Both the position numbers and the translations under genes were made by a program. The notes below the pieces were generated by a model. That model saw only the letters and a program-made list of their open reading frames with translations. It was not told the DNA's origin and did not search any database. A stretch of DNA of 64,000 bases from Patescibacteria group bacterium (lineage in GTDB: Bacteria > Patescibacteriota > Minisyncoccia > UBA6257 > 2-01-FULL-56-20). The stretch lies in contig JANLHI010000021.1 in assembly GCA_024654525.1 (NCBI GenBank), positions 1,969 to 65,968 on the forward strand, read 5' to 3'. This document shows, piece by piece, positions 100 through 59,381 of the stretch (position 1 is its first letter; every line of letters begins with the position of its first letter).

Positions 100-345
100 A
101 ACCCGCCTGTGTTCATGCGAACTATGGCGAGGCGAAGTGGGGAAGCGGGTGAGAATCCCGCACAGTGCCGCTACGGTGAAGTCCCGCCTGTGTTCAATAG
201 AACTTCGGCGAGACACAAGTCCGAGTACCACTCTTTGGAATGTTTCGTGTGCGTCCCCGCATTCTGCGGGGCAAGTCTCTCGAGCAAGAGGCAAGCCTGT
301 TTGTCGAACAGACTCCCCCTTGCGGTGGGTTTTTTATTTCCGAAT
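100..345 (+). promoter_or_regulatory. Candidate cobalamin (AdoCbl) riboswitch with expression platform, upstream of the 398..2257 gene
   Basis: Core AGUGGGGAAGCGGGUGAGAAUCCCGCACAGUGCCGCUACGGUGAAG (about 137-182) matches the conserved cobalamin-riboswitch core (GGGAA..GGUGA.AAUCC..ACAG; compare T. tengcongensis AGUGGGAAAGUGACGUGAAAUUCGUCCAG). A B12-box-like AAGUCCGAGUACCACUC follows at about 218-234. A strong hairpin CCCCGCAUUCUGCGGGG (256-272) and a GC-rich segment plus U-run (about 312-336) precede the start codon at 398. Downstream genes are B12-related. Confidence 0.6.
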
Positions 346-22071: not shown

Positions 22072-24336
22072 CTAAAGTTTCTTTATCTCACCCAATACCT
22101 CCTCAACATTCCCTGTATGCACGAGAAAGAAATGCTGGTCTTTACCGAGTTTCGCCCATAGTTCACCAATCTCAATCTTGTATGCCGTGTCTTCATTGCT
22201 CACGCGATCGCCGCCTTTCCACTCAAGCGCGATAATCGCGCCTTTATTGGTGACCGCGATAAAGTCGGGGTAAAACTTTCCTTTCTTCCAACCTTGGATA
22301 AAGAACGGGTCCACCTTCTCGCGACTGCGCACCCAGTATTTAATGTTCGCGAGGGTGTCCAAGTCAAGACGTTGAACAAACTCGTGTTCCTCCTTGTTTA
22401 GCTTGTCAATTTTCTCGTAGTAGTTTCGATTGAACTCTTGCGGCACGGCGCGTTTTAGCGTGATGGTGTCGGGAAATGCCTTAAACGGCTTTGTAGAAAC
22501 CTTCCCTGCTTTCATCTTGGTGTCGAACTGTGTCTTCGCATACGCTTCGAGAACAGATTCGATGTGCTGGCTCAAACGATCCGCGAGCACGAAGCGATTT
22601 ACCGAAAGCTCCGCAAGCGAATGTGTTTTGAGTTGATGGTCAATCGCCTTGTCCAAGAAGCGCACCTTGTCCGACTTCTCAAGAATCGTGAAGCGCAGTT
22701 TTTTATCGAGCCATTGTACAAGCTCCTCTTTGGTAAGGTTTTTGTCCGAGTATTTCAACTTGAGCGACATTTGTACTCCTCGTATCCACGCATCATCTTC
22801 CCGGATGTCAATAATCGCGCGACCATCACTGTCATAATGCACTTCAAAATCAAATTTCGGGTCTTGCTTCGCAAGCTCAAAATCACTGCCGATCAAATCC
22901 TCAAAGGTGAGCTTGTCGCCATCAAGCGCCATGAGTGGCACTTTGAGGATCCCGGACACTGCCTTCTTTGCTTCAAGTTCGTATACAGCATCTTTCTTTT
23001 CAGCGCTTACGATGTCTGCTCGGCTGTATCCGTTGTCTTCAAGTCCGGAGATAATCTGGTTCGCCGCCTCGTTAAAGTTTCGCGCCGAGGCAAACACATA
23101 GCTTCGGTTAAAATCTTCGTCGGTTTTCCGCTTCGCATTCGGCATGCGGATAATGCGCCCGATAATCTGTTCCACGGCAATTTTCGAGCCGAGGTTCGCA
23201 ACAGAGACGAGTACATACGCAAACGCGCAGTCCCATCCTTCCGCAAGCGCGTTGACGGTGATGATGTAGCGTATTTTGCAGGTTTTGCTAAAGAGGTTCA
23301 CGCCTTCAAGATCGTTCTTATCCGATGTCTTGATAGCGATTTCTTCTTCGGGAATTTTTCGCTCCAAAAGAAAAGCTTTTATCTCCTCCACGGTAACGGT
23401 CTTGTTCACCGAGCTTTTTGGCTGTGCCTGCAAGAGTGCTATCGGCCGGATGTACTCGTTCTTTATTTTCTTCGCTCCTTTTTCAAGTTCAATGCGCTTT
23501 TCAATACCGTTCGTGAGCGCGTTTTGCCACTGCGCCGCACTTTCAAGCACAATAGGAATTTTGACCATCTGCTCATCTTTCAATTCAGACGCATGTACCT
23601 CAAAGAGAATATTGCTTTCCTTGAGCGGCGTGGCAGTGTACTCAACAACAAATGCGGGGTTGAGACCGTTTATAGTTTCAAGAGACAAATCCGAAGTCGC
23701 CTTATGTCCCTCGTCGATGACTATAATCGGATTATTCAAACGAATGGTGTTTGCGAGCGAGTTAATGACCGTGCCTTCCTCGTCGCGCTCTAAATATTCC
23801 GGCTCCTCAATATTTTCAAAATGATCCATCAACGAGCCGTTCTCTTGGTACACCTTGTATTTGCCTTGCTTCTGCTTTTTCTTATTGAACGCCGCAAAGC
23901 TGGCTACGATAATGCAAAGATTATCGCTCACATCCGCCTTGCGGATAGCAAGAGCTTCTTCGTTTGAGAATACACGCACATGGTTGTCATACGATTCATC
24001 ATGAATCTGGCGGTGCGGGTCTTTGCGGTCTTTCAGTTTTTTGAGCGTTTGCGTTTTAATTGCTTCGGAAGGTGTAAACCACAACACAACGCCACGATCC
24101 ATCTTGTCTTGAAGTGCTTTGCTCATTATTTTCTCAACCGCGTGACACCCGACGAGCGTCTTGCCTCCACCGGTCGGTATTTTAATGCAGACAAACGGCA
24201 CTTCGCCAAATGCCTCCGCTTTGTACGGGTTTTCGGTGATGCCCATAAAGGCATACCTCAACCCGACTTTCCGAAGTTCGACCAGAAAGTTCTCAAGCGT
24301 TTCTAAACTATTCTTTTGGTATCGTTTTAGTTGCAT
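22072..24336 (-). CDS. res: Type III restriction endonuclease, Res subunit (SF2 helicase plus nuclease)
   Basis: Helicase motif I PTGGGKT and motif II DEGH. 754 aa. Lies immediately downstream of the mod gene on the same strand. Confidence 0.8.
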   Translation of the reverse strand: MQLKRYQKNSLETLENFLVELRKVGLRYAFMGITENPYKAEAFGEVPFVCIKIPTGGGKTLVGCHAVEKIMSKALQDKMDRGVVLWFTPSEAIKTQTLKKLKDRKDPHRQIHDESYDNHVRVFSNEEALAIRKADVSDNLCIIVASFAAFNKKKQKQGKYKVYQENGSLMDHFENIEEPEYLERDEEGTVINSLANTIRLNNPIIVIDEGHKATSDLSLETINGLNPAFVVEYTATPLKESNILFEVHASELKDEQMVKIPIVLESAAQWQNALTNGIEKRIELEKGAKKIKNEYIRPIALLQAQPKSSVNKTVTVEEIKAFLLERKIPEEEIAIKTSDKNDLEGVNLFSKTCKIRYIITVNALAEGWDCAFAYVLVSVANLGSKIAVEQIIGRIIRMPNAKRKTDEDFNRSYVFASARNFNEAANQIISGLEDNGYSRADIVSAEKKDAVYELEAKKAVSGILKVPLMALDGDKLTFEDLIGSDFELAKQDPKFDFEVHYDSDGRAIIDIREDDAWIRGVQMSLKLKYSDKNLTKEELVQWLDKKLRFTILEKSDKVRFLDKAIDHQLKTHSLAELSVNRFVLADRLSQHIESVLEAYAKTQFDTKMKAGKVSTKPFKAFPDTITLKRAVPQEFNRNYYEKIDKLNKEEHEFVQRLDLDTLANIKYWVRSREKVDPFFIQGWKKGKFYPDFIAVTNKGAIIALEWKGGDRVSNEDTAYKIEIGELWAKLGKDQHFFLVHTGNVEEVLGEIKKL

Positions 24337-24340
24337 ATAA

Positions 24341-25873
24341 TTAATATACTTTCACCTCGTACGGAATCTGCTTAAAGACGATGTTATGAGCGGCAAGTGT
24401 GTCGTCGTCCAATAGACATCGGTCTGCGTAGACTATCTTCTTTTTATCAGAATCTCCAATCGTCTTGAGTGTCGCCTTGTCGAGCTCATTTTTGTTCTTT
24501 CCCTTGTAGAGAAGATAGTATTCGGTGTCGCCATACTCGCCGATATAGTTGCCACTGATTTTCTTTGGGTCAATATTTGTTTGCGTTTCGGTGAAGTAGA
24601 TATAAGTGGCAAATTGTTTAAAATCGCAGGTTTCTTCGATCTGTCCATCCTCGTTGAAAAGCGGCTTGTCTAACTCGCAATACTCAAAGCCGTCATTGTA
24701 GTCGTACTTTTTGATAGCCCGCTTCACGCGCTCGGCAGTAATGTCTCTTGCAACCTTATCTTCCATTTCCACGAGGATAAATTTCCGGCTTCCACCGTCT
24801 TCTTTGTTTAAGTCCAAAACAGCTTGCGCTGTTGTACCGGAGCCTGCAAATGAGTCCAAAATGAGAGAGTCTTTTTGCGAAGCTAGTTCAAGAATTCTTT
24901 TGATCAAACCGACGGGTTTTGGCGTCTCAAAAATACCTCCATCAAAAAGATTAATAATCTCATTCTTACCTTCCTTGTTTGTCGCAACGTCTGTCCAAAT
25001 GTTGCTTGCCGGAATACCCGTGCTCTCGTGCGCATAAATCACGCGCTGAGGTACACCGTCGCCTTTCATGCCAAAATAAATCTTGCCCTCACTCAGTAGA
25101 CGTTTATAGCTTTCCTCCGGGTATGCCCATTCTCTTTTGTGTTTTTTGCCAGAAGGCGTAACTATTTCGTAAGTATATCCACCACTTTTATGCCCCTTTG
25201 TTGTGGCTATGGGTACCGGTCTCCACTTTCCGTTTGGAAATTCTTTTGTCGGCGGTTTGTATGCAGTTTCAATATAAGCTTCGCTGAGAGAAAGCAAATT
25301 AAGTTGGGCGATTTTGGAACGAGCATACACAACGATATATTCTGCCTTTACCGTGATATTTCTACTATCGTTTGAGCTCTCTTTCTTCCGTTGCCATGTG
25401 ACGGTCGTAACGTGATTTTCTTCAAGAAAAATCTCATCCATAGCACCACGAAGATTGCAGTGCTCATTTTCATCAACAGAAATAAATATAAATCCGTCGT
25501 CTGTTAGTAAATCGCGCAAAAGTTTCAGGCGCGGATACATCATGCAAAGCCACTTGTCGTGACGCGTTAAATCTTCCGACTCTTTTCCGACAACTTTGCC
25601 AAGCCACTGTTTTATCTTTGGTGAGTTTACTTTGTCGTTATAAACCCACCCTTCGTTGCCGGTATTGTACGGAGGATCAATGTAAATACATTTAACTTTG
25701 CCGACATAGTGTGGCATCAATGCTTTAAGCGCTTCCAAATTGTCGCCGTGCACTATGAGGTTTTTTGAATGCTCGCCAACAGACGCACCTTTTACTTTCT
25801 TGAACAACTTAAAAGGAACCTCCTTATCGTGGTTTACAACTGCATCTTTACCTATCCAGTTTAGCGTTGCCAT
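24341..25873 (-). CDS. mod: Type III R-M DNA methyltransferase, Mod subunit (N6-adenine or N4-cytosine MTase, DPPY type)
   Basis: Motif IV CIYIDPPYNTG and motif I LILDSFAGSGTTAQAV; 510 aa. Confidence 0.85.
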   Translation of the reverse strand: MATLNWIGKDAVVNHDKEVPFKLFKKVKGASVGEHSKNLIVHGDNLEALKALMPHYVGKVKCIYIDPPYNTGNEGWVYNDKVNSPKIKQWLGKVVGKESEDLTRHDKWLCMMYPRLKLLRDLLTDDGFIFISVDENEHCNLRGAMDEIFLEENHVTTVTWQRKKESSNDSRNITVKAEYIVVYARSKIAQLNLLSLSEAYIETAYKPPTKEFPNGKWRPVPIATTKGHKSGGYTYEIVTPSGKKHKREWAYPEESYKRLLSEGKIYFGMKGDGVPQRVIYAHESTGIPASNIWTDVATNKEGKNEIINLFDGGIFETPKPVGLIKRILELASQKDSLILDSFAGSGTTAQAVLDLNKEDGGSRKFILVEMEDKVARDITAERVKRAIKKYDYNDGFEYCELDKPLFNEDGQIEETCDFKQFATYIYFTETQTNIDPKKISGNYIGEYGDTEYYLLYKGKNKNELDKATLKTIGDSDKKKIVYADRCLLDDDTLAAHNIVFKQIPYEVKVY

Positions 25874-25990
25874 GTTTAAAAATCGAGTCTTTGAGTTTCA
25901 TTTTACCTTAACTCGCCAAAAAACGCTCACGTTTTATCTGCCGAGTCCTTGACAAACCGTGTTAAATATCCCGCAACCTTTTCCATAGTG

Positions 25991-26019
25991 TTGACTTTTT
26001 ATTGTACATAGTCTAGGAT
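25991..26019 (+). promoter_or_regulatory. Candidate sigma70-type promoter of the higB cassette (TTGACT, 17-nt spacer, TAGGAT) with a TGTACA palindrome in the spacer
   Basis: Sequence inspection only. A TTGTTgggAACAA inverted repeat lies just downstream and could be an operator. Confidence 0.3.
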
Positions 26020-26061
26020 AGAGTTGTTGGGAACAAATTATTAGTATGAAATACTTCCACA

Positions 26062-26349
26062 ATGAGATTACTGGGCAAACAACAGCTACACGACTTTAAG
26101 GAAAAACATGCTGATGCCCGGTCGCAGGTCGAATCGTGGGAGGCGGAAGTCGAGAGCGCGGAGTGGAAAACCCCTCACGAACTCAAGAGTAGGTTCCCTA
26201 GCGTAGATACACCCGGTAACCAGCAAGCCATTTTCAATATATGTGGCAACAAATACCGGCTGTGGGCACAGGTAGAGTATAAGCAAGGAATCGTGTTAGT
26301 AAAGAGGATTGGAACACATAAGGAATACAGCAAGTGGAAAATCGTATAA
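26062..26349 (+). CDS. higB: Type II toxin HigB family (RelE/ParE superfamily mRNA interferase)
   Basis: 95 aa. NQQAIFNICGNKYRLWAQVEYKQGIVLVKRIGTHKEYSK matches the HigB_toxin family pattern (F.I.GN.YRL...IGTH.EY). Confidence 0.7.
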   Translation: MRLLGKQQLHDFKEKHADARSQVESWEAEVESAEWKTPHELKSRFPSVDTPGNQQAIFNICGNKYRLWAQVEYKQGIVLVKRIGTHKEYSKWKIV

Positions 26350-26355
26350 AAAGCC

Positions 26356-27603
26356 ATGACCCAAATAAAAGTTATAAAAAATCAAAAAGACTACGAAGAA
26401 GCTCTCAAGCTCATTGAGGGGCTTATGAACCGTAGCCCTGACCCCAACAGCGACGAAGGTGCACAACTTGAACTTCTTAGCGTCCTTATTGAGGACTACG
26501 AGTCAAGACAATTCCCTAGTGCACTTCCTAGTCCTGTCGAGGCAATCAGATTCCGCATGGAACAAAGCGACCTCAAACCGGTTGATCTCGTACCCTACCT
26601 CGGTAGCCGTAGCCGTGTTTCTGAAATCCTTTCCGGAAAACGACAACTCACGCTTGATATGGTTCGTGCTCTTTCTACGGGTCTTGGTATTCCGGAAAAG
26701 GTGCTTGTCCAAAAACCGAATCAATCGGAAGAATCGCGTTATGAACGCTGGGATATACGCATAGTCCGGGCTATGGAAAGCTACGGGTACTTCGGGAACA
26801 AAACGCTAAAGAAATTCAACAAGGGCGAACTACTGAAAAAATATTTTGGCTCTTTTGGTGGAAACTTACAACCAGTAGCACTTCTCCGTGCCAGTATCAG
26901 CCATCGTTCTGCCCCAAGAACAGATACTGGGGCATTGGATGCATGGAAAATTCGCGTGCTACAAAAAGCAGAGAAAATAAAAACGTCTGTTAAATACAAA
27001 CACGGGGTTATTGATGTTGATTTCATGCGCAAGCTCGTCAAATTAAGCACAAAAAAAGACGGGCCAACTTTGGCGTGCGAAGAATTAAAAAAGATAGGAA
27101 TCAAAGTGGTGATTGAACGACATCTTCCAAAAACTTTCCTCGATGGTGCAGCTATTCTAGAAGATAAAGACAATCCTGTAATCGGCATCACACTTCGACA
27201 TGACCGACTAGATAACTTCTGGTTTACGCTTATGCATGAGGTGGCTCACGTAGCACTACACTGCGATCAAAATATCAGCACTTTTTACGATGAGAAATTG
27301 CTAGAAAAGAACGGAGGGCAAATGACAGAAGAAGAACAGAAACGGGAACGTGAAGCCGACGAATGGGCGGAGGAAGCCATTTTACCGGAGAGTAAGTGGG
27401 AGATTAGTAACGCAAAAATCACTCCATCACCCATGGCAGCACAAAGTCTCGCTAACGAACTCAGTATTCACGTTGCCGTAGTTGCTGGTGTTGTGCGATT
27501 CAAACATCAAAATTTCTTCTACTTGAACAAGATCGTTAATGACGAAACTGCAAAAGTACGCCGACTATTTCCTGATGCGTTTAAAGCAAAAACAGTAACA
27601 TGA
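26356..27603 (+). CDS. HigA-like antitoxin (helical N-domain plus XRE HTH) fused to an ImmA/IrrE (DUF955, M78-like) metallopeptidase domain
   Basis: Residues 1-135 mirror the E. coli HigA architecture (YEEALKLIEGLMNRSPDPNSDEGAQLELLSVLIEDYE, then LGSRSRVSEILSGKRQLTLDMVRALSTGLGI). The C-terminal region carries the HExxH motif HEVAHVALH with downstream Glu residues, typical of ImmA/IrrE. Confidence 0.7.
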   Translation: MTQIKVIKNQKDYEEALKLIEGLMNRSPDPNSDEGAQLELLSVLIEDYESRQFPSALPSPVEAIRFRMEQSDLKPVDLVPYLGSRSRVSEILSGKRQLTLDMVRALSTGLGIPEKVLVQKPNQSEESRYERWDIRIVRAMESYGYFGNKTLKKFNKGELLKKYFGSFGGNLQPVALLRASISHRSAPRTDTGALDAWKIRVLQKAEKIKTSVKYKHGVIDVDFMRKLVKLSTKKDGPTLACEELKKIGIKVVIERHLPKTFLDGAAILEDKDNPVIGITLRHDRLDNFWFTLMHEVAHVALHCDQNISTFYDEKLLEKNGGQMTEEEQKREREADEWAEEAILPESKWEISNAKITPSPMAAQSLANELSIHVAVVAGVVRFKHQNFFYLNKIVNDETAKVRRLFPDAFKAKTVT

Positions 27604-28715
27604 CAGCTATAAAACCCTACATTCCTATACTTCGCTCACGACCTGCTGAAATGCTGGCACTTGAACGCATGTATCCGCAAGATCGCGAACAGATTACACC
27701 GTTTATCGAGTTCATCATGCCACCACCAAAAACAGACAAAGATGATCGCACGAAGATTGTCGAGGACTCTAGAAGTAAACTTCTCAGACAACTATCAGAT
27801 GTTGGCGTGCGACTTCTCAAGTATTGTGGTAGAGAAGCAGTATTTATAGACGTGCATCTACTCGACGGGGATATACGTGCAGATGCGTTTGAAAGCATTC
27901 TTTCGGCAACAAACGAAGTTGATCTCTTCTCAATTCCCGTTGTTCATATTGTCCCTGTTATAGGTACAGATGCGGACATGGCAACACGAGAAGTGGCTGT
28001 GAAATACGCAAAAATCAACGACAGAGGTATGTGTATTCGTATTGATATTTCTCATTTCAAAGACGAGAATCTTGTGACTCACATTGATGAGTTCATAAAA
28101 GACAGTGATCTTGATATAAAAAATATTGATATTTTGGTTGACCTTCAAATCGTTGATGAGAGCACAACAGCAGAATCCGTCGTTGGAAAACTTAATCGTC
28201 TTCCGCAAATCAAATCCTGCCGCTCTTTTATTCTTACGGGAGGAGCATTTCCAAAAGATCTCTCAGAATACCCCAAACATGGGAACTACCAACGAGAACG
28301 GCTTGACTATGCGCTTTGGCAAAGCGTAAGTAACTTGATTACAAGTCGAAAACCGTATTTCTCTGACTACACAATCCAACATCCTATTTACTACGGCAAC
28401 ATGCCCGGTGTGAACCCTAGCGCTAGCGTACGGTACACAAACGATACCCAATGGGAGATTATTCGAGGTGAAGGTTTGAGAAATAAAAAAGGGGCAGGAT
28501 TCAAACAGTATTTGGCACATGCACGAGAGATAATTCAACAGCCATTCTACAAGAACGCCGATTATAGTTTTGGGGATTCAGAAATTAACCGTATTGCTTC
28601 GCAGGATGAAAAGACAGGAAATCCGCAACTGTGGCTAAACATTGGTATCAACCACCATTTGACGCTAGTGGCGAAACAACTCGCTGACTTTCGCGAGAAG
28701 ATAAAGCAGTCATAA
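27600..28715 (+). CDS. Uncharacterised 371-aa protein, translationally coupled to the HigA-ImmA gene (ATGA start/stop overlap)
   Basis: Clean ORF with coding-like composition. No motif I can assign with confidence. From memory only, it may belong to the sce7725 / beta-protein family that pairs with sce7726-type PD-(D/E)xK proteins. Confidence 0.5.
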   Translation: MTAIKPYIPILRSRPAEMLALERMYPQDREQITPFIEFIMPPPKTDKDDRTKIVEDSRSKLLRQLSDVGVRLLKYCGREAVFIDVHLLDGDIRADAFESILSATNEVDLFSIPVVHIVPVIGTDADMATREVAVKYAKINDRGMCIRIDISHFKDENLVTHIDEFIKDSDLDIKNIDILVDLQIVDESTTAESVVGKLNRLPQIKSCRSFILTGGAFPKDLSEYPKHGNYQRERLDYALWQSVSNLITSRKPYFSDYTIQHPIYYGNMPGVNPSASVRYTNDTQWEIIRGEGLRNKKGAGFKQYLAHAREIIQQPFYKNADYSFGDSEINRIASQDEKTGNPQLWLNIGINHHLTLVAKQLADFREKIKQS

Positions 28716-29301: not shown

Positions 29302-29507
29302 GATTAAAAAGCAAGAACAACCGATACATAGATTTTACCACAACAACGCTATCACTGGATACCAGTGTCGCTGTGGATGAACAACCGACCGAGCCCCGTT
29401 TTCCGCCCCCGCCTATACAAATGTTTCGGCGGGCAGGCATTCAATTTCTAAAAAAGTACCTACGCCTGCGTGGCCGAAGCCACTTCGGCGAGGCGAAGGC
29501 CCGCAAC

Positions 29508-29527
29508 CTGCCTGCCGGCAGGCAGGA
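29508..29527. repeat. Perfect 20-bp GC-rich palindrome CCTGCCTGCCGGCAGGCAGG (copy 1)
   Basis: An exact second copy is at 49853..49872. Embedded in a GC-rich noncoding region that also contains a GCCGAAG-CCA-CTTCGGC hairpin and motifs shared with the 21757-22071 and 100-215 regions. Confidence 0.8.
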
Positions 29528-29620
29528 AAAATAAAAAACATAGACAGCGGAAATGGGGCAGAGGGCCGGACGCGCCGCCAAAATTTCTGCCCCTAAAAAG
29601 CCAGTTGAGTTTGATTCTTG

Positions 29621-29692
29621 AGCCGGTGGTCGGATTTGAACCGACGACCCACGCTTTACGAAAGCGTTGCTCTGCCCCTGAGCTACACCGGC
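29621..29692 (-). tRNA. tRNA-Thr (anticodon CGU)
   Basis: Minus-strand sequence GCCGGTGTAGCTCAGGGGCAGAGCAACGCTTTCGTAAAGCGTGGGTCGTCGGTTCAAATCCGACCACCGGCT folds as a cloverleaf. Anticodon loop TTCGTAA, T-loop GGTTCAAATCC. CCA is not encoded. Confidence 0.85.
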
Positions 29693-29852: not shown

Positions 29853-32800
29853 ATGCCTAAATTCGTACACTTACATACTCACTCCCACTATTCGCTTCTC
29901 GATGGACTCGCAAAAATCGAAGACCTTGTGGCACGCACCAAAGAGCTCGGCATGGATACGCTTGCATTAACCGATCATGGCGTACTCTATGGTGCAGTAG
30001 AATTTTATAAAAAAACGAGAGCGGCGGGCATCAAACCCATCTTAGGAGTCGAAGCATACATTGCACCGAAGGAACGCCAAAATAAAGACGCGGGAGACAG
30101 ATATTATCACCTTATTCTTCTTGCCGAAAATAATACGGGGTGGAAAAATCTCATAAAACTCGTAACAAAAGCACAGCTTGAAGGGTTTTATTACAAACCA
30201 CGGATGGATAAAGAACTTCTTCGCGAATATCACGAAGGCATTATCTCACTTTCAGGATGCTTCTCCGGAGAACTTGCGCGCGCCATTCTTGCGGGAGATT
30301 CCGGCGAAAAGATACTTAAGGAATATCAGGATATCTTCGGTCCGGAAAATTTCTTTATCGAGATAGGGTACCATCCTCACATCAATCGCGCAGAACACGA
30401 CAAACTTTGGAACGGCTTGATTGCACTTTCAAAAAAAACGGGGGCTCCTCTTGTCGCCACACAAGACCTTCACTATGCGCGCCCCGAAGACCGCGACTAC
30501 CATGATATATTGCTTGCGGTTCAAACCGGGAGCAATTTGAGCGACCAAGACAGACTCACCCTCAAAGCGGATGACTTTTCCATGACGTCTCCCGAGGATA
30601 TGGCAGAAAAATTCAAAGATATTCCCGAAGCGGTAACGAACACCGTTCGCATCGCCGAACGATGCAATGTAACACTGGAACTTGGAAAAACTCAACTTCC
30701 CGAATTTCCAAAACCCGAAGGGATAAGCGCGAACGAGTATGTCCGCACGCTTGCCACCGAAGGATTAACACGCCGATTTCCCGGTATCACATGCACACAA
30801 GAAGCGAAAGATCGTCTTGAGTATGAGCTTGGCGTTATAGAAAAAACAGGATTTGCGGATTATTTCCTTATTGTCCAAGACCTTACCGGATGGGCGCGCG
30901 CGCATGGCATTGCGGTCGGTCCGGGCCGTGGTTCTGCGGCGGGAAGTCTGGTTTCCTATGTTCTGGGTATTACCGATATTAATCCTTTGAAATACGGATT
31001 ACTCTTCGAACGATTCTTGAATCCGGAGCGTATTCAAATGCCCGATATCGACATTGATTTTGCCGATGCGCGAAGAGACGAAGTACTTGCCTATGCCCGT
31101 CAAAAATACGGAGAAGACCACGTAGCGCAAATAATTACATTCGGGACTATGGCAGCACGTGCCGCAGTGAGGGATGCGGGACGGGCAATGGGTTTGCCGT
31201 ACGGTTTTTGCGATCAAATCGCGAAACTCATCCCTTTCAATGCATCGATCAAGGAATCTATTGACCAAGTACCCGAGCTTGCGGACATGGCTAAACAAAA
31301 CGAAGAAGCGCGCCGACTCTTGGACGCCGCACAACATCTTGAGGGTGTCGCACGACATGCATCGGTACACGCATGCGGTACGGTGATTACAAAAAAACCC
31401 CTCACCGAATATCTTCCTCTTCAATATGCCCCGCAAGACAGAGCGGTGATTATTACACAGTTTGAAATGCATTCCGTGGAAGACTTAGGACTTCTTAAAA
31501 TGGATCTTCTTGGGCTCCGAAACCTCACTATCATCGAGGAAACCGTGCGACTTGTGAAAAATATCCGCGGCGAAGATATTTATATTTCCGATCTTCCACT
31601 CGACGATGCCGCGACATATTCCCTTCTTCAAGCGGGTAACACTACCGGTGTGTTCCAATTCGAATGCCTTTCGGAAGAAACGATCGTATCCAATACCACC
31701 ATTAAAAAGCTCTACGAGCGGAAGAATAAGAAGACACTCGAGTCGGTATATGTCGACGAAGGGAAAGTACATAAAAATAAAATCCTTGGTGTCGCGAAAA
31801 GCGGCGTGAAAGACGTGTATGCGCTTGTCGCCGAGAACGGGTGGTATATCAAATCTTCTGCGGACCATAATTTTCTTACCGAGAACGGATGGAAGAAACT
31901 TTCGGATATTCGACCCGGCGAAAAGATACTCATGAAGACAAAAGCAAAGCACCTCGTCTATAACGCGTGCGCACGTTGCGGGAGGCAAATTAGCGGACAA
32001 AAAGAAGGACACAGCACATTCTGCTACACGTGTTCAGCTCGCGTATATAGCAACCCCAGCAAACCGATCTCGCGCACAAAAATGAAGGTCGCGCGAACGC
32101 GGTTTTTCGAACGAGGCGGAACAGTATGGAACGAAGGCGTAACGACCGAAAATAACGAGACTTGGCGTGCAACCGCGGAAAAAATATCGCATGCGCTCAC
32201 TGGCGTATCCATTGAAACGCGATGGGGCAAGAAAAAAGCCGCGGAGATAAAAGCCCGGTTGTCGCAAAGGTTTAGAGGCGCGGGGAATCCAATGTTCGGC
32301 AAACCTGCTCCCCACCGCAAAGGAGGCGTGCGAGGAGATTTGGGCCACTATGTGCGTTCAAATTGGGAAGCGGATTTTGCACGAATCCTCAAACTGTATG
32401 GAATCGCATATGAATATGAACCGAGATCCTTTACTCTTCAAAACTCGCGGGGAGAGGTAATGCATTATACTCCCGATTTTTACGTGAAAGCCACCAATAC
32501 TTTCTATGAAATAAAGGGATGGCTCCACGATATTGACCAGAAAAAAATGGACCTTTTCCGGCAACAGTATCCTGAATACAATTTTATTCTCATTAACAAA
32601 ACAAAGTTTGCGGAACTGGCGATGCGCTACCGCAGTCTTGTCGCTTGGGAATGTCCGAGGGTTCCTACAGAACGAAGTTTTAAATTTATAAAAGTGAGGG
32701 AAGTGCGGTACGCAGGAAAAGAAGAAACGTATGACATCGCGATGGAAGCACCCGGAAATAACTTCGTGGCAAATGGATTCGTCGTGCATAACTCGAGCGG

Positions 32801-34172
32801 CATGCGTCGCTATATGAAAGATATCCATCCCACCGAACTGGAAGATTTAATTGCGCTTGTGGCACTTTTCCGCCCCGGTCCCATGGAGCTTATTCCCACA
32901 TTTATCAAACGAAAACGCGGTGAAGAAAAAATTGTGTATCTTCATCCTCGACTGGAACCTATTTTGAAAAACACCAACGGCATTGGCGTATATCAGGAGC
33001 AAATGATGCAGATTGCCCGCGATCTTGCAGGCTACACACTCCCCGAAGCAGACACGCTTCGAAAAGCAATCGGTAAAAAAATAAAATCGCTTCTTGACGA
33101 ACAGAAAGTAAAACTTACGAATGGCATGATTAAAAATGGTATTCCTCAGAAAACCGCGGAAGCGATTTGGGAACTTTTTCCTCCCTTCGCACGCTACGGA
33201 TTTAACAAGTCGCACGCGGCATGCTACGCCCTGATCGGCTATCAGACCGCGTATCTTAAAGCTCATTATCCGGTTGAATCCATGGCGGCTCTTTTAAACG
33301 CAGAAGTCAGCGATATCGAACGTATTGCGTTTTTAGTCAATGAGGCACGGCAAACCGGAATATCCATCCTTCCTCCCGACGTAAACAGCAGTTTGGTCAA
33401 ATTCTCTCCGAATGGAGAAGAAGTGCGTTATGGGCTTCTCGGTATAAAGAATGTCGGGGAACAAATTGCGCAAGCAATAGTGGAAGAAAGGATACGGGGA
33501 GGCGCCTTCGAAAACTTCACTTCTTTTCTTGCACGCATTCAACATAAAGATTTAAATAAAAAATCACTCGAAAGTTTAGCAAAATGCGGCGCACTTGAAT
33601 CTCTTGATATAGAGCGCAATCAAGCTATCCAGAACATGGACGATATTGTCCGCTTTGCAGGAGTTGCGCGGAAAACCGCATCCCAAACCAATTCACTTTT
33701 TGGTAATTCAACCGCATCACTCTCCATTAAATTAAAACCCGCTCCTCCCGCAACGCGAGAAGAAAAACTCGGATGGGAAAAGGAGCTCCTTGGATTTTAT
33801 CTTTCTGATCATCCCCTGAATTCATTCAAGGAACAACTTGCTACTTTGCGTGCGCGAACGCTTACCGAACTTCGCACTATTAAAAACGAGAGTCTTACCA
33901 TACGCGCCGCAGGACTTATTACCACCATCAAAAAAATATTCACGAAAAAAGGAGATGCGATGATGTTTGTGACTATTGAAGACTTTTCCCCGCAACCCTT
34001 TGAAATAGTAATTTTCCCCCGCGTACTCGAAAAAACACAGGCAGTGTGGCAAGAAAACAATGTAGTCCTTCTTCAGGGAAAAATGTCTTGGCGTGGCGGA
34101 GAACCAAAAATCATCTGCGACGATGCAAGGAAATTGGAATTGCACCACACGGAGAAAAAAACGCCCGCTTAA
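29853..34172 (+). CDS. dnaE: DNA polymerase III alpha subunit, interrupted by an in-frame intein
   Basis: N-terminal PHP domain (HLHTHSHYSLLDG), polymerase core motifs, OB-fold C-terminus. 1439 aa including a 376-aa intein, leaving about 1063 aa of extein. Confidence 0.9.
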   Translation: MPKFVHLHTHSHYSLLDGLAKIEDLVARTKELGMDTLALTDHGVLYGAVEFYKKTRAAGIKPILGVEAYIAPKERQNKDAGDRYYHLILLAENNTGWKNLIKLVTKAQLEGFYYKPRMDKELLREYHEGIISLSGCFSGELARAILAGDSGEKILKEYQDIFGPENFFIEIGYHPHINRAEHDKLWNGLIALSKKTGAPLVATQDLHYARPEDRDYHDILLAVQTGSNLSDQDRLTLKADDFSMTSPEDMAEKFKDIPEAVTNTVRIAERCNVTLELGKTQLPEFPKPEGISANEYVRTLATEGLTRRFPGITCTQEAKDRLEYELGVIEKTGFADYFLIVQDLTGWARAHGIAVGPGRGSAAGSLVSYVLGITDINPLKYGLLFERFLNPERIQMPDIDIDFADARRDEVLAYARQKYGEDHVAQIITFGTMAARAAVRDAGRAMGLPYGFCDQIAKLIPFNASIKESIDQVPELADMAKQNEEARRLLDAAQHLEGVARHASVHACGTVITKKPLTEYLPLQYAPQDRAVIITQFEMHSVEDLGLLKMDLLGLRNLTIIEETVRLVKNIRGEDIYISDLPLDDAATYSLLQAGNTTGVFQFECLSEETIVSNTTIKKLYERKNKKTLESVYVDEGKVHKNKILGVAKSGVKDVYALVAENGWYIKSSADHNFLTENGWKKLSDIRPGEKILMKTKAKHLVYNACARCGRQISGQKEGHSTFCYTCSARVYSNPSKPISRTKMKVARTRFFERGGTVWNEGVTTENNETWRATAEKISHALTGVSIETRWGKKKAAEIKARLSQRFRGAGNPMFGKPAPHRKGGVRGDLGHYVRSNWEADFARILKLYGIAYEYEPRSFTLQNSRGEVMHYTPDFYVKATNTFYEIKGWLHDIDQKKMDLFRQQYPEYNFILINKTKFAELAMRYRSLVAWECPRVPTERSFKFIKVREVRYAGKEETYDIAMEAPGNNFVANGFVVHNSSGMRRYMKDIHPTELEDLIALVALFRPGPMELIPTFIKRKRGEEKIVYLHPRLEPILKNTNGIGVYQEQMMQIARDLAGYTLPEADTLRKAIGKKIKSLLDEQKVKLTNGMIKNGIPQKTAEAIWELFPPFARYGFNKSHAACYALIGYQTAYLKAHYPVESMAALLNAEVSDIERIAFLVNEARQTGISILPPDVNSSLVKFSPNGEEVRYGLLGIKNVGEQIAQAIVEERIRGGAFENFTSFLARIQHKDLNKKSLESLAKCGALESLDIERNQAIQNMDDIVRFAGVARKTASQTNSLFGNSTASLSIKLKPAPPATREEKLGWEKELLGFYLSDHPLNSFKEQLATLRARTLTELRTIKNESLTIRAAGLITTIKKIFTKKGDAMMFVTIEDFSPQPFEIVIFPRVLEKTQAVWQENNVVLLQGKMSWRGGEPKIICDDARKLELHHTEKKTPA
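31665..32792 (+). mobile_element. Intein in DnaE (Cys1...His-Asn, followed by Ser+1) carrying a homing-endonuclease-like insert with a Zn ribbon, a NUMOD-like segment and a PD-(D/E)xK-like motif
   Basis: The insertion splits the conserved GVFQFE / SSGMRRY extein junction. Block A CLSEET, block B SADHNFLT, block F/G ETYDIAMEAPGNNFVANGFVVHN then S. Internal CARCG...CYTC Zn ribbon and YTPDFYVKATNTFYEIKG. Confidence 0.8.
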
Positions 34173-48984: not shown

Positions 48985-49530
48985 TTATGTGTTTATTTTT
49001 ACAATTTCTACAACGCCATCCCGCGCACCCGGCACCGCACCCTTTATAAAAAGAAGATTATTGTCCTTATCAACACTCACAATTTTCAAATTTTTTATTG
49101 TTACTCTATCCGTTCCCATATGTCCTGCCATTTTCTTTCCAGGAAGCACTCGCTGAGGAGACGTGTTCCCAATTGATCCGGGCATACGAAGCCTGTTTTT
49201 TTGTCCGTGCGTCTTTGGCCCCCCTCCGAATCCATGACGTTTTACCACTCCTTGATACCCTCTCCCCTTGGTGGTGCCACTCACCCGAACAGTGTCTCCC
49301 TCTTTGAATCCATCAACGCCCACAGAATCCCCCATCTTGAGCGCACTTTCTTTTACTTTAAATTCTTTTTTTTCTTTTCCCATGGCAAGTTGCACCGCGT
49401 GATATCCATCTCGCTCCGCAGTACGCACTAAAGACACCGTATTCGGCATTGCACGAACCACGGTCACAGAGACTATTTTTTTCTCTTGCCATACCTGATC
49501 CGTTTTTATTTTTTTCCCGAGAATAAACAT
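48985..49530 (-). CDS. rplC: 50S ribosomal protein L3
   Basis: Conserved L3 sequence. Start set at the internal Met MFILGKKIK. Confidence 0.85.
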   Translation of the reverse strand: MFILGKKIKTDQVWQEKKIVSVTVVRAMPNTVSLVRTAERDGYHAVQLAMGKEKKEFKVKESALKMGDSVGVDGFKEGDTVRVSGTTKGRGYQGVVKRHGFGGGPKTHGQKNRLRMPGSIGNTSPQRVLPGKKMAGHMGTDRVTIKNLKIVSVDKDNNLLFIKGAVPGARDGVVEIVKINT

Positions 49531-49852
49531 ATAACTAATAAAAATCGCCCAAGGCGTACCCTGAGCGGGAAACGTCCTTGTGCAATCCTTCACAACCCTG
49601 AAATTTCTAAGTGAGGGATCATTAAAGAGACTGGAACATGATATAGCAGTGCTCCTATAATGTCAAACGAAGATATTCCTTCAACTGCCAGGTATTTCCA
49701 TGGGAAAGTAATCCCGCGTACGACGCGATGGTTTCCGATGTTGAACCACTTTTGATCCTTTTAAACATTCGATGTTTTGTAAGCGTCCGCAACACGCATG
49801 GTACCAAAAATGCAAAACTCCGGCGATTGCTCATCGGAGTTCCGCGACTGTC

Positions 49853-49872
49853 CCTGCCTGCCGGCAGGCAGG
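49853..49872. repeat. Perfect 20-bp palindrome CCTGCCTGCCGGCAGGCAGG (copy 2), inside the rpsJ-rplC spacer
   Basis: Exact match to the copy at 29508..29527. Confidence 0.8.
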
Positions 49873-49880
49873 AGCGTGTA

Positions 49881-50216
49881 TTAGACCATCTTTATCTCGA
49901 TATCCACCCCCGCCGGGAGGTTGAGATTTCCGAGAGATTCGATGATTTTCTGATTCGGATTCAAGATATCCACCAACCGCTTATGCATTCGGAGCTCGAA
50001 CTGCTCACGCGAATCCTTATGCACAAAAGTGGAGCGGTTTACTGTATATTTTTTCGTTTCGGTGGGCAAAGGAATCGGTCCTACCACTTTCGCATCGTTA
50101 CGCTCCGCCGCATCTATAATTTGACGCGCAGAAGAATCGATCAATTTATGATCATACGATCGAATCCTCAGCCGAAGCTTTTGCGGAAAGTCAGTTTCTT
50201 GTTGTTTCTTTGCCAT
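49881..50216 (-). CDS. rpsJ: 30S ribosomal protein S10
   Basis: Conserved S10 sequence ([13 protein letters not shown]...). Confidence 0.9.
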
Positions 50217-59177: not shown

Positions 59178-59306
59178 AACTTTTATAGTATAACCGATTA
59201 TACCGTAAAACGATGCGTGGCGTCCGATTTACGATTTGTCATTTAAGATTTAAGATTTAAGATACGGTAGGTAGGAAATACGCATAATGCCACCTACCAA
59301 TAACTT

Positions 59307-59381
59307 GCCCTCGTGGTGAAATGGATATCATACTTGGCTTCGAACCAAGAGGTCCGGGTTCAATTCCTGGCGAGGGCACCA
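59307..59381 (+). tRNA. tRNA-Arg (anticodon UCG), CCA encoded
   Basis: GCCCTCGTGGTGAAATGGATATCATACTTGGCTTCGAACCAAGAGGTCCGGGTTCAATTCCTGGCGAGGGCACCA. Anticodon loop CTTCGAA, T-loop GGTTCAATTCC. Confidence 0.85.

Follow-up and report, generated by a model that had tools for sequence, protein, structure and literature searches.

A 20-bp perfect palindrome, CCTGCCTGCCGGCAGGCAGG (a 10 + 10 dyad, here called PAL), is present as two exact copies in the 64-kb stretch of Patescibacteria DNA that was analysed as a whole and is referred to below as the window. These two sites are probably solo copies of an ultra-small selfish insertion, which is also the signature module of widespread tiny cassettes that combine a GIY-YIG gene with tRNA sequence. 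Comparison across carriers, at the level of sequence, establishes PAL as an inserted 20-bp DNA unit, and likewise establishes its tight coupling to tiny GIY-YIG genes of one family that adjoin tRNA genes.

Two solo copies of PAL in the window

Copy 1 lies at 29507–29526 and copy 2 at 49853–49872, with no strand assigned to either, both having been located by exact matching and by direct reading. The first-pass annotation had reported two identical exact copies, which exact matching indeed finds, and had given the position of copy 2 correctly, while its position for copy 1 (29508–29527) was off by one. Its statement that such a repeat is unlikely by chance agrees with the 100 dinucleotide-preserving shuffles of the window, in which PAL had 0 matches. 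No further copy was found in the window at up to three mismatches. The sequence common to the two sites is 21 nt (PAL and the A that follows it) and the flanks are unrelated, which rules out a larger MITE-like repeat around them. Neither site matches an Rfam family.

Copy 1 is intergenic, between a 217-aa ORF and tRNA-Thr(cgt) (29620–29692, minus strand; called by ARAGORN, with an Rfam tRNA score of 68.1 bits), and lies 94 nt past the 3′ end of this tRNA. Copy 2 starts 8 nt past the stop codon of rpsJ, which encodes S10 (49881–50216, minus strand; taken from the ORF list and supported by the same gene order and a Pfam Ribosomal_S10 match in the relative L121), and thus lies inside the rpsJ–rplC spacer. 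Both locations, the one beside tRNA-Thr and the one in the ribosomal protein spacer, are as they had first been described. The rplC gene (L3; 48985–49530, minus strand) was identified from its translation, which is 100% identical to P0001, the 50S ribosomal protein L3 of a Patescibacteria MAG. Its true start is the ATG at 49530, not the GTG of the ORF list, so that the rpsJ–rplC spacer measures 350 nt.

PAL is predicted to fold into an 8-bp stem with a CCGG loop (−13.9 kcal/mol). An intrinsic terminator consists of a GC hairpin with a directly adjoining U-run, and neither copy has this form: on the minus strand, copy 1 is followed by UUGCGGG and the U-run precedes it, and copy 2 is followed by GACAGUCG. 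A consensus terminator scanner calls neither copy. The earlier remark that no U-run adjoins the palindrome is therefore right, although RNA folding of the transcribed minus strand places a separate hairpin with a U-run 6–11 nt beyond each copy. After rpsJ, 11 nt past copy 2, this is a terminator-like hairpin at 49805–49845 (minus strand; GGAACUCCG...CGGAGUU followed by UUUUGCAUUUUU), and the minus strand of 49800–49890 as a whole folds at −37.4 kcal/mol with z = −3.0. The counterpart 6 nt past copy 1, seen in the fold of 29450–29590, is a GC-rich composite hairpin at 29450–29500 (minus strand), then UACUUUUUU. The consensus scanner flags neither of these two hairpins.

No tRNA-like sequence was found in the flanks of the two copies, and no GIY-YIG ORF or remnant was found anywhere in the 64-kb window, so that both copies are solo elements rather than cassettes. 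Beyond the identical protein, the next-best matches to the L3 of the window reach only 70–74% identity, and no contig encoding the L3, S10 or EF-Tu of the window is on record; an empty-site comparison is thus possible with a distant spacer only. The nearest relative found is L121 (L3 70% identical), and its homologous post-rpsJ spacer has another GC palindrome, of 26 nt, in place of PAL. Between L121 and the window, conservation extends over the final ~130 nt ahead of rplC but not over the stretch just past rpsJ. For the window copies, the sequence evidence of an empty site is this distant spacer comparison.

Several other features of the window were recorded alongside. Upstream of rplC (49531–49666, minus strand) there is a near-consensus promoter, TTGACA-17-TATCAT at 49666–49638, with a leader of ~105–130 nt that ends in a terminator-like hairpin with a U-run (49567–49546). 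Both promoter and leader are conserved in the relative whose L3 is 70% identical; the leader, for which no Rfam family was matched, is a candidate ribosomal-protein leader or attenuator. A variable region at 22075–28712 ends at copy 1 and tRNA-Thr, and holds a type III restriction–modification pair (Res helicase and N6/N4 methylase), an M78-peptidase/HTH protein, a 'Beta protein' (PF14350) partner and an ORF of no assigned function. The dnaE gene for DNA polymerase III alpha (29853–34169, plus strand) has an intein at about aa 614–980 with a Phage_endo_I endonuclease-like match inside, and this intein is another selfish element in the same window. A heptamer array, GATTTAA × 5.4 at 59226–59263, stands ~45 nt upstream of tRNA-Arg(tcg) (59307–59381) and is of the same kind as the heptamer arrays that dominate the PAL loci of other phyla. 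Finally, an AdoCbl-II (cobalamin) riboswitch aptamer at 122–238 (plus strand) scores 38.1 bits, just over the gathering score.

Distribution of PAL

The first-pass annotation had reckoned with the case that the two copies are the only ones and are absent elsewhere; instead, the exact 20-mer is carried by numerous phyla and also by viral contigs. A scan with one genome per species found it at at least 120 loci. The carriers listed include many Patescibacteria lineages, Omnitrophota, Bacteroidota, Planctomycetota, Nitrospirota (Thermodesulfovibrionales), Verrucomicrobia, Elusimicrobia, Ignavibacteria and Bdellovibrionales, with no cyanobacterial record among the matches listed for these loci (at least 120). 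Cultured Bacteroidota are among the carriers (Winogradskyella, Flagellimonas, Longitalea, Flavivirga, Aquiflexum and Aestuariivivens; isolates include Winogradskyella echinorum KCTC 22026, Longitalea luteola, Flagellimonas yonaguniensis and Aquiflexum lacus), as are long-read and complete assemblies made with different assemblers. Exact PAL was also found in 35 viral-contig stretches, and one viral contig of 29.5 kb holds at least six copies. We note that L104 is titled 'TPA_asm uncultured Gammaproteobacteria', has 31% GC and encodes a GatB closest to that of Shapirobacteria (Patescibacteria); the record titles of this and other loci so named look wrong.

The flanks of PAL are unrelated between loci. 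In the same loci, decayed copies with one or two mismatches are found about as often as a second exact copy, and some variants preserve pairing, such as GCTGCC...GGCAGC in L176 and the G–T wobbles in L004 and L038. An association with gene ends, which had been proposed as a check, is weak: tandem, convergent and divergent spacers contain 58, 14 and 11 PAL copies, compared with 61, 21 and 18% of spacer length for the same types, which gives no clear preference for gene 3′ ends in a count whose crude ORF calls put too many copies inside ORFs in high-GC loci. A literature search found no paper containing the 20-mer, its 14- or 18-nt cores, or the peptide LPAGRQ that it encodes in one frame.

Evidence that PAL is inserted DNA

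At 26 loci, the flanks of PAL join to the exact sequence of the neighbouring intact tRNA, so that the insertion comprises 20 bp, with neither duplication nor loss of the target. The sites occupied in these tRNA copies are stem/loop junctions (the D-loop, the boundary of the anticodon stem and loop, position 9, the variable loop and the T-loop), and they usually follow an A. Among 126 pooled copies, the base at −1 is A in 41% and T in 10%, and no tetranucleotide consensus was found in the flanks. When PAL was deleted in silico and the tRNA was called again with ARAGORN, a call across the junction was obtained in L030 only, because most of the interrupted tRNA copies are partial. Recognisable tRNA-derived sequence accounts for about 13 of 169 PAL copies.

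PAL also lies inside coding sequence. Nine real protein genes, among them those for FtsK, GatB, an RfbB-like dehydratase, ScpB and membrane proteins, contain it, always read in the same frame as LPAGRQ. The gatB gene of L104 has PAL, whereas a 94%-identical ortholog (P0121/L240) is without it: the CGGTCAAACT of the ortholog has PAL + TG as its counterpart in L104, so that 12 nt are gained on balance and the frame is kept. Compared with solved structures, the insertion in GatB maps to a surface loop of which the solved GatB proteins have a shorter version, and that in FtsK falls in a variable loop.

A further feature is the position of PAL at the centre of longer hairpins. Complementary flanks of at least 5 bp were found for 26 of 167 copies, compared with 7.1 ± 2.6 in permutations, and flanks of at least 7 bp for 9 copies, compared with 0.6. 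PAL is nested at the centre of other PAL or PAL-like copies in L018, L042, L146 and L128, and other palindromes are in turn nested inside PAL in L184, L191, L183 and L188. The PAL loci (1.24 Mb) are also rich in tandem arrays of period 7, with 93 such arrays as against 11–35 for each of the periods 5, 6, 8 and 9; 15% of the period-7 arrays lie within 100 nt of PAL, in 3% of the sequence (a 5-fold enrichment).

PAL is accompanied by other palindromes. Further GC-rich palindromes recur in unrelated phyla, e.g., (C)TCCGCCAGCTGGCGGA(G) near PAL in L011, L015, L016, L032 and L040, and a palindrome of a second type, type B, occupies the same D-loop site of tRNA copies beside GIY-YIG genes (L039, L203, L226 and L229). 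These recurrences suggest a family of PAL-like elements. In the Bacteroidetes MAG locus L112 (1886–2255), a 44-nt unit is repeated 8.4 times at a distance of 16 nt from a PAL copy, and each unit contains a 22-nt perfect palindrome, GGGACAGGTCGCGACCTGTCCC.

Coupling to small GIY-YIG genes and tRNA

Among the loci selected for PAL, nine small ORFs match the GIY-YIG profile, six of them within 150 nt of PAL. Their arrangement recurs as a cassette: a tRNA segment from position 1 to x, then PAL, a few further tRNA bases up to y, the ATG of an ORF of ~80–90 aa, and the stop codon of this ORF at an intact tRNA. The duplicated tRNA segment usually begins exactly at tRNA position +1, and the stop codon abuts or overlaps +1 of the intact tRNA. 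Cassettes of this form are found in L037, L106, L118, L155, L160 and others. The insertion site x is constant for each tRNA type and the end y of the duplicated segment varies from 25 to 52, a variation that suggests decay of an originally longer tRNA copy. Mirror-image cassettes exist as well, in which an intact tRNA and the ORF are followed by a 3′ pseudo-copy with PAL (L173, L207 and L190). Other variants are tandem cassettes and a tRNA duplicated in full that has PAL at position 9.

The coupling was also examined in a sample chosen by the protein and not by PAL. Metagenomes were scanned for relatives of the protein alone, which gave at least 600 pattern matches; 519 of these encode a relative, and the best 80 of the 519 were used. 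An exact PAL lies within 150 nt upstream in 41 of these 80 loci, a PAL with one or two mismatches lies upstream in another 11, and 5 have PAL downstream only. The remaining 23 have none by this definition, and most of them contain PAL in an altered form (interrupted by a nested palindrome, 19 nt long or a PAL-like variant), the type-B palindrome (CCCGCCCG...CGGGCGGG) or terminal inverted repeats of 20 bp. In ~50 of the 80 loci, a tRNA gene (Leu, Arg, Lys, Phe, Asn, Met, Gly, Val, Ser or Gln) follows within 0–40 nt of the ORF stop. PAL occupies the ~40-nt tRNA copy in ~65–75% of cases, a figure that holds for the subfamily closest to the query and not for all small GIY-YIG genes, since a protein from a PAL-bearing cassette served as the query and the 80 loci are those that match it best.

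The cassette protein, of ~80–90 aa, consists of the GIY-YIG catalytic domain only. Its matches are to Pfam GIY-YIG (PF01541) alone, no NCBIfam model matched, and its nearest solved relatives are the UPF0213 proteins 1ywl and 1zg2, whose function is not assigned. Protein clades follow the tRNA type, and PAL is common to all clades; the letters of PAL are exact while the proteins have diverged to ~50% identity. Solo PAL is ~15 times commoner than PAL with an ORF and makes up ~94% of the copies sampled from genomes. Intermediate forms occur, namely truncated GIY-YIG ORFs (L010, L039 and L074) and remnants without an ORF, in which a tRNA 5′ copy with PAL stands directly upstream of the intact tRNA (L030 and L083).

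Cultured phages and plasmids yielded only GIY-YIG genes of ~40% identity, one of which was examined and is without tRNA context; a scan of viral contigs for the protein returned nothing beyond one contig already found; and the viral contig with at least six PAL copies has no GIY-YIG gene of the cassette family in the parts read. The literature search found no description of GIY-YIG genes with duplicated tRNA segments, nor of the combination of PAL, GIY-YIG gene and tRNA.

Three related arrangements were also seen. In a Saccharibacteria MAG, a GIY-YIG ORF of the same family lies within an insertion in a 23S rRNA gene (L093, 4758–5042), with no PAL nearby. A separate clade of small GIY-YIG genes (L186, L206, L208 and L232) has 20-bp inverted repeats, CCGGGTAGTGAAACTTTGCT and AGCAAAGTTCTACTACCCGG, in place of PAL and tRNA. 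In two viral contigs (L148, 2239–2330; L125, 8616), an initiator-like tRNA-Met has PAL in its variable loop; in L148 the gene is still recognised by ARAGORN, as a 92-nt tRNA with PAL as a long extra arm, and this PAL-bearing copy might still be functional.

Comparison with known systems

By analogy, the behaviour of PAL is closest to that of the small dispersed repeats (SDRs) of the Nostocaceae, which Elhai et al., in 2008 (Genome Res 18:1484), are said to have described as hairpin-forming sequences of 21–27 nt, often nested, often embedded in tandem heptamers and inserted at the centre of the HIP1 palindrome. PAL, with 20 nt, is likewise a tiny dispersed hairpin that is nested and associated with heptamers. 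We know of no enzyme for the SDRs. The 2008 paper is cited in PMC3116915, PMC5861425 and PMC2884548, and PMC5861425 reports SDRs in Nostocaceae only. PAL differs from them in being another sequence, a perfect 20-bp palindrome spread over many phyla other than cyanobacteria and over phage contigs, and in its link to a GIY-YIG gene and tRNA genes.

The first-pass annotation had offered a REP-like element as one candidate. REPs and REPINs are short GC-rich extragenic palindromes tied to a RAYT (HUH Y1) gene, which the non-autonomous copies far outnumber; they are imperfect palindromes with a GTAG/CGTC tag and a species-specific sequence (PMC3116915, PMC3733652). The description holds insofar as PAL is GC-rich, forms a hairpin, is dispersed as a repeat, behaves like an insertion, has a link to a nuclease and outnumbers the gene concerned. 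It fails at the features that define REPs: PAL is a perfect palindrome without a GTAG/CGTC tag in the 126 pooled copies, is identical across phyla, is not strictly extragenic (being also found within at least nine protein genes and in tRNA sequence), and is recurrently adjoined by a GIY-YIG nuclease gene, not by a RAYT gene. PAL is thus not a REP in the strict sense. A protein-binding site, another of the candidates first offered, would be compatible with the data; the link to a nuclease and tRNA had not been foreseen.

Two other kinds of palindromic selfish insertion deserve mention. Rickettsia palindromic elements (RPEs) are 100–150 bp long, are confined to Rickettsia and can sit in frame inside protein and RNA genes, and the GC clusters of yeast mitochondria are organellar. 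PAL is similarly a palindromic selfish insertion, capable of lying in frame and forming a GC-rich hairpin in AT-richer genomes, but neither RPEs nor GC clusters are tied to a GIY-YIG/tRNA cassette or common across phyla.

For the gene, the nearest parallel comes from phage T4, where SegB is a free-standing GIY-YIG homing endonuclease in a tRNA gene cluster that promotes its own inheritance and whose cut leaves 2-nt 3′ overhangs (PMC2330249). The cassettes share with SegB a GIY-YIG gene lodged among tRNA genes. However, Seg proteins also carry a DNA-binding domain, whereas the cassette protein is the catalytic domain only, and in the cassettes a tRNA segment is duplicated, with one copy interrupted by PAL.

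Proposed mechanism and alternative explanations

From the genomic associations above, we infer that PAL is mobilised by the nuclease. The GIY-YIG protein would recognise PAL, probably as a dimer on the 10 + 10 dyad, or else its hairpin, and would cleave at loop junctions or close to them. Symmetric cleavage about the dyad, e.g., CCTGCCTGC^CG^GCAGGCAGG with 2-nt 3′ overhangs, would fit such a model. The break would then be filled by host repair with a copy of PAL, the boundaries of the copied unit perhaps being set by the foot of the hairpin. With cutting by the nuclease and repair by the host, solo copies would arise in trans. The tRNA homology around the ORF would let whole cassettes enter the cognate tRNA genes of distant hosts. 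Solo copies favour existing hairpin tips, including those of other PAL copies, as well as tandem-heptamer regions, and occasionally lie in frame inside genes. The two copies in the window are most likely inert passengers that bear no sign of host function, situated in hairpin-rich 3′ regions that tolerate an extra GC hairpin; at most, PAL would add its predicted stable stem to the rpsJ and tRNA-Thr transcripts.

Several difficulties attend this mechanism. To our knowledge, GIY-YIG nucleases form no covalent DNA intermediate, so that a GIY-YIG enzyme alone cannot carry out cut-and-paste insertion, and simple end-joining does not explain an exact 20-bp insertion without target duplication. The intact tRNA beside the cassette is uninterrupted, so that a homing model in which the tRNA gene is cut needs some immunity against cutting. 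The PAL-rich viral contig is a difficulty too, given the absence of the cassette family from the parts read, and since the 64-kb window contains neither a GIY-YIG ORF nor a remnant, a resident enzyme in this organism is a supposition.

The window copies could instead be relics of decayed cassettes, from which the GIY-YIG ORF and the duplicated tRNA or target segment were deleted while the constrained 20-mer was left. The remnants without an ORF and the truncated ORFs described above show such states, and the mirror-image cassettes share the geometry of copy 1 and tRNA-Thr, with PAL downstream of an intact tRNA. A 59-aa ORF (49655–49834, minus strand) that begins 18 nt past copy 2 even contains KRIKSGSTSE, which resembles the family motif KYLKSGxGRE, but the resemblance is not significant (hhalign probability 0.8%, E = 0.073; E ~110 with an HMM of 80 sequences), and the ORF was ruled out as a decayed GIY-YIG gene. 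With no tRNA-like sequence in the flanks of either copy, a gatB gene in which PAL arrived alone, and the small share of all copies in recognisable tRNA-derived sequence, we regard decay from a cassette as unlikely. Still less probable is the retention of PAL for the benefit of the host, as an RNA or DNA hairpin that stabilises the 3′ ends of the rpsJ and tRNA-Thr transcripts or makes the polymerase pause there, a role that has been proposed for REPs, or as a binding site for a host protein. The stability of the hairpin would suit this role, as would the location of both copies in 3′ untranslated regions beside terminator-like hairpins and the different GC palindrome of L121 at the same place after rpsJ. 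However, a sequence selected for its structure would be free to covary, yet its 20 letters are the same in different phyla; moreover, no U-run adjoins PAL, gene 3′ ends are not clearly preferred, and PAL is also found inside coding sequence and tRNA pseudo-copies. The window copies can be explained without any host role as an extra RNA stem, and such a role would leave the letter-perfect conservation of PAL between phyla unexplained.

A different enzyme might also move PAL, e.g., a HUH/RAYT-like single-strand transposase, for which the tRNA segment would be no more than a favoured landing site. Targeting of loop junctions without target duplication does resemble the single-strand chemistry of IS200/IS605 or REP elements, which GIY-YIG enzymes lack; several other types of palindrome use the same sites; and the PAL-rich viral contig is again pertinent, with no GIY-YIG gene in the parts read. 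Set against this are the occupancy of a ~40-nt tRNA copy in ~65–75% of cases, compared with two copies in the 64-kb window, which is hard to obtain without mechanistic coupling, and the 1.2 Mb of PAL loci, in which no transposase family recurs beside PAL, the systematic search having been for GIY-YIG only. On balance, we consider another enzyme very improbable. Chance, or an artefact of assembly or sequencing such as an adapter or a palindromic chimera, is effectively refuted: although most carriers are MAGs and palindromes can arise in libraries, zero copies are expected by chance, and PAL occurs in cultured isolates as well as in long-read or complete assemblies from different assemblers, lies in frame in conserved proteins, is linked to one protein family and has decayed and nested copies.

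Implications

Solo copies of a selfish insertion thus remain our preferred reading of the two window sites. A broader proposal, to which we give somewhat under an even chance, is that PAL and the ~80-aa GIY-YIG protein together constitute a previously unrecognised class of mobile element. A nuclease consisting only of the catalytic domain would drive a 20-bp non-coding 'nano-transposon' into loop junctions throughout the genome without target duplication, and its gene would ride duplicated tRNA segments, which are conserved universally, across phyla via homologous repair, with phages as carriers. This process may yield the landscape of tandem heptamers and nested palindromes that was first seen in Nostoc.

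Insertion of PAL would account for the recurrent LPAGRQ in conserved proteins, for the PAL-interrupted tRNA fragments and for GC-rich hairpins in the genomes of Patescibacteria, Omnitrophota and Bacteroidota. There is a substantial chance that the PAL system is a distinct class of mobile element. If so, mobile DNA of the smallest class would span phyla and have a candidate enzyme, rather than being a cyanobacterial curiosity, and the long-open question of how a 20-nt element moves would become directly testable, e.g., in the PAL-bearing cultured Bacteroidota. A minimal nuclease of ~80 aa with a defined 20-bp partner sequence would, in addition, have practical interest.
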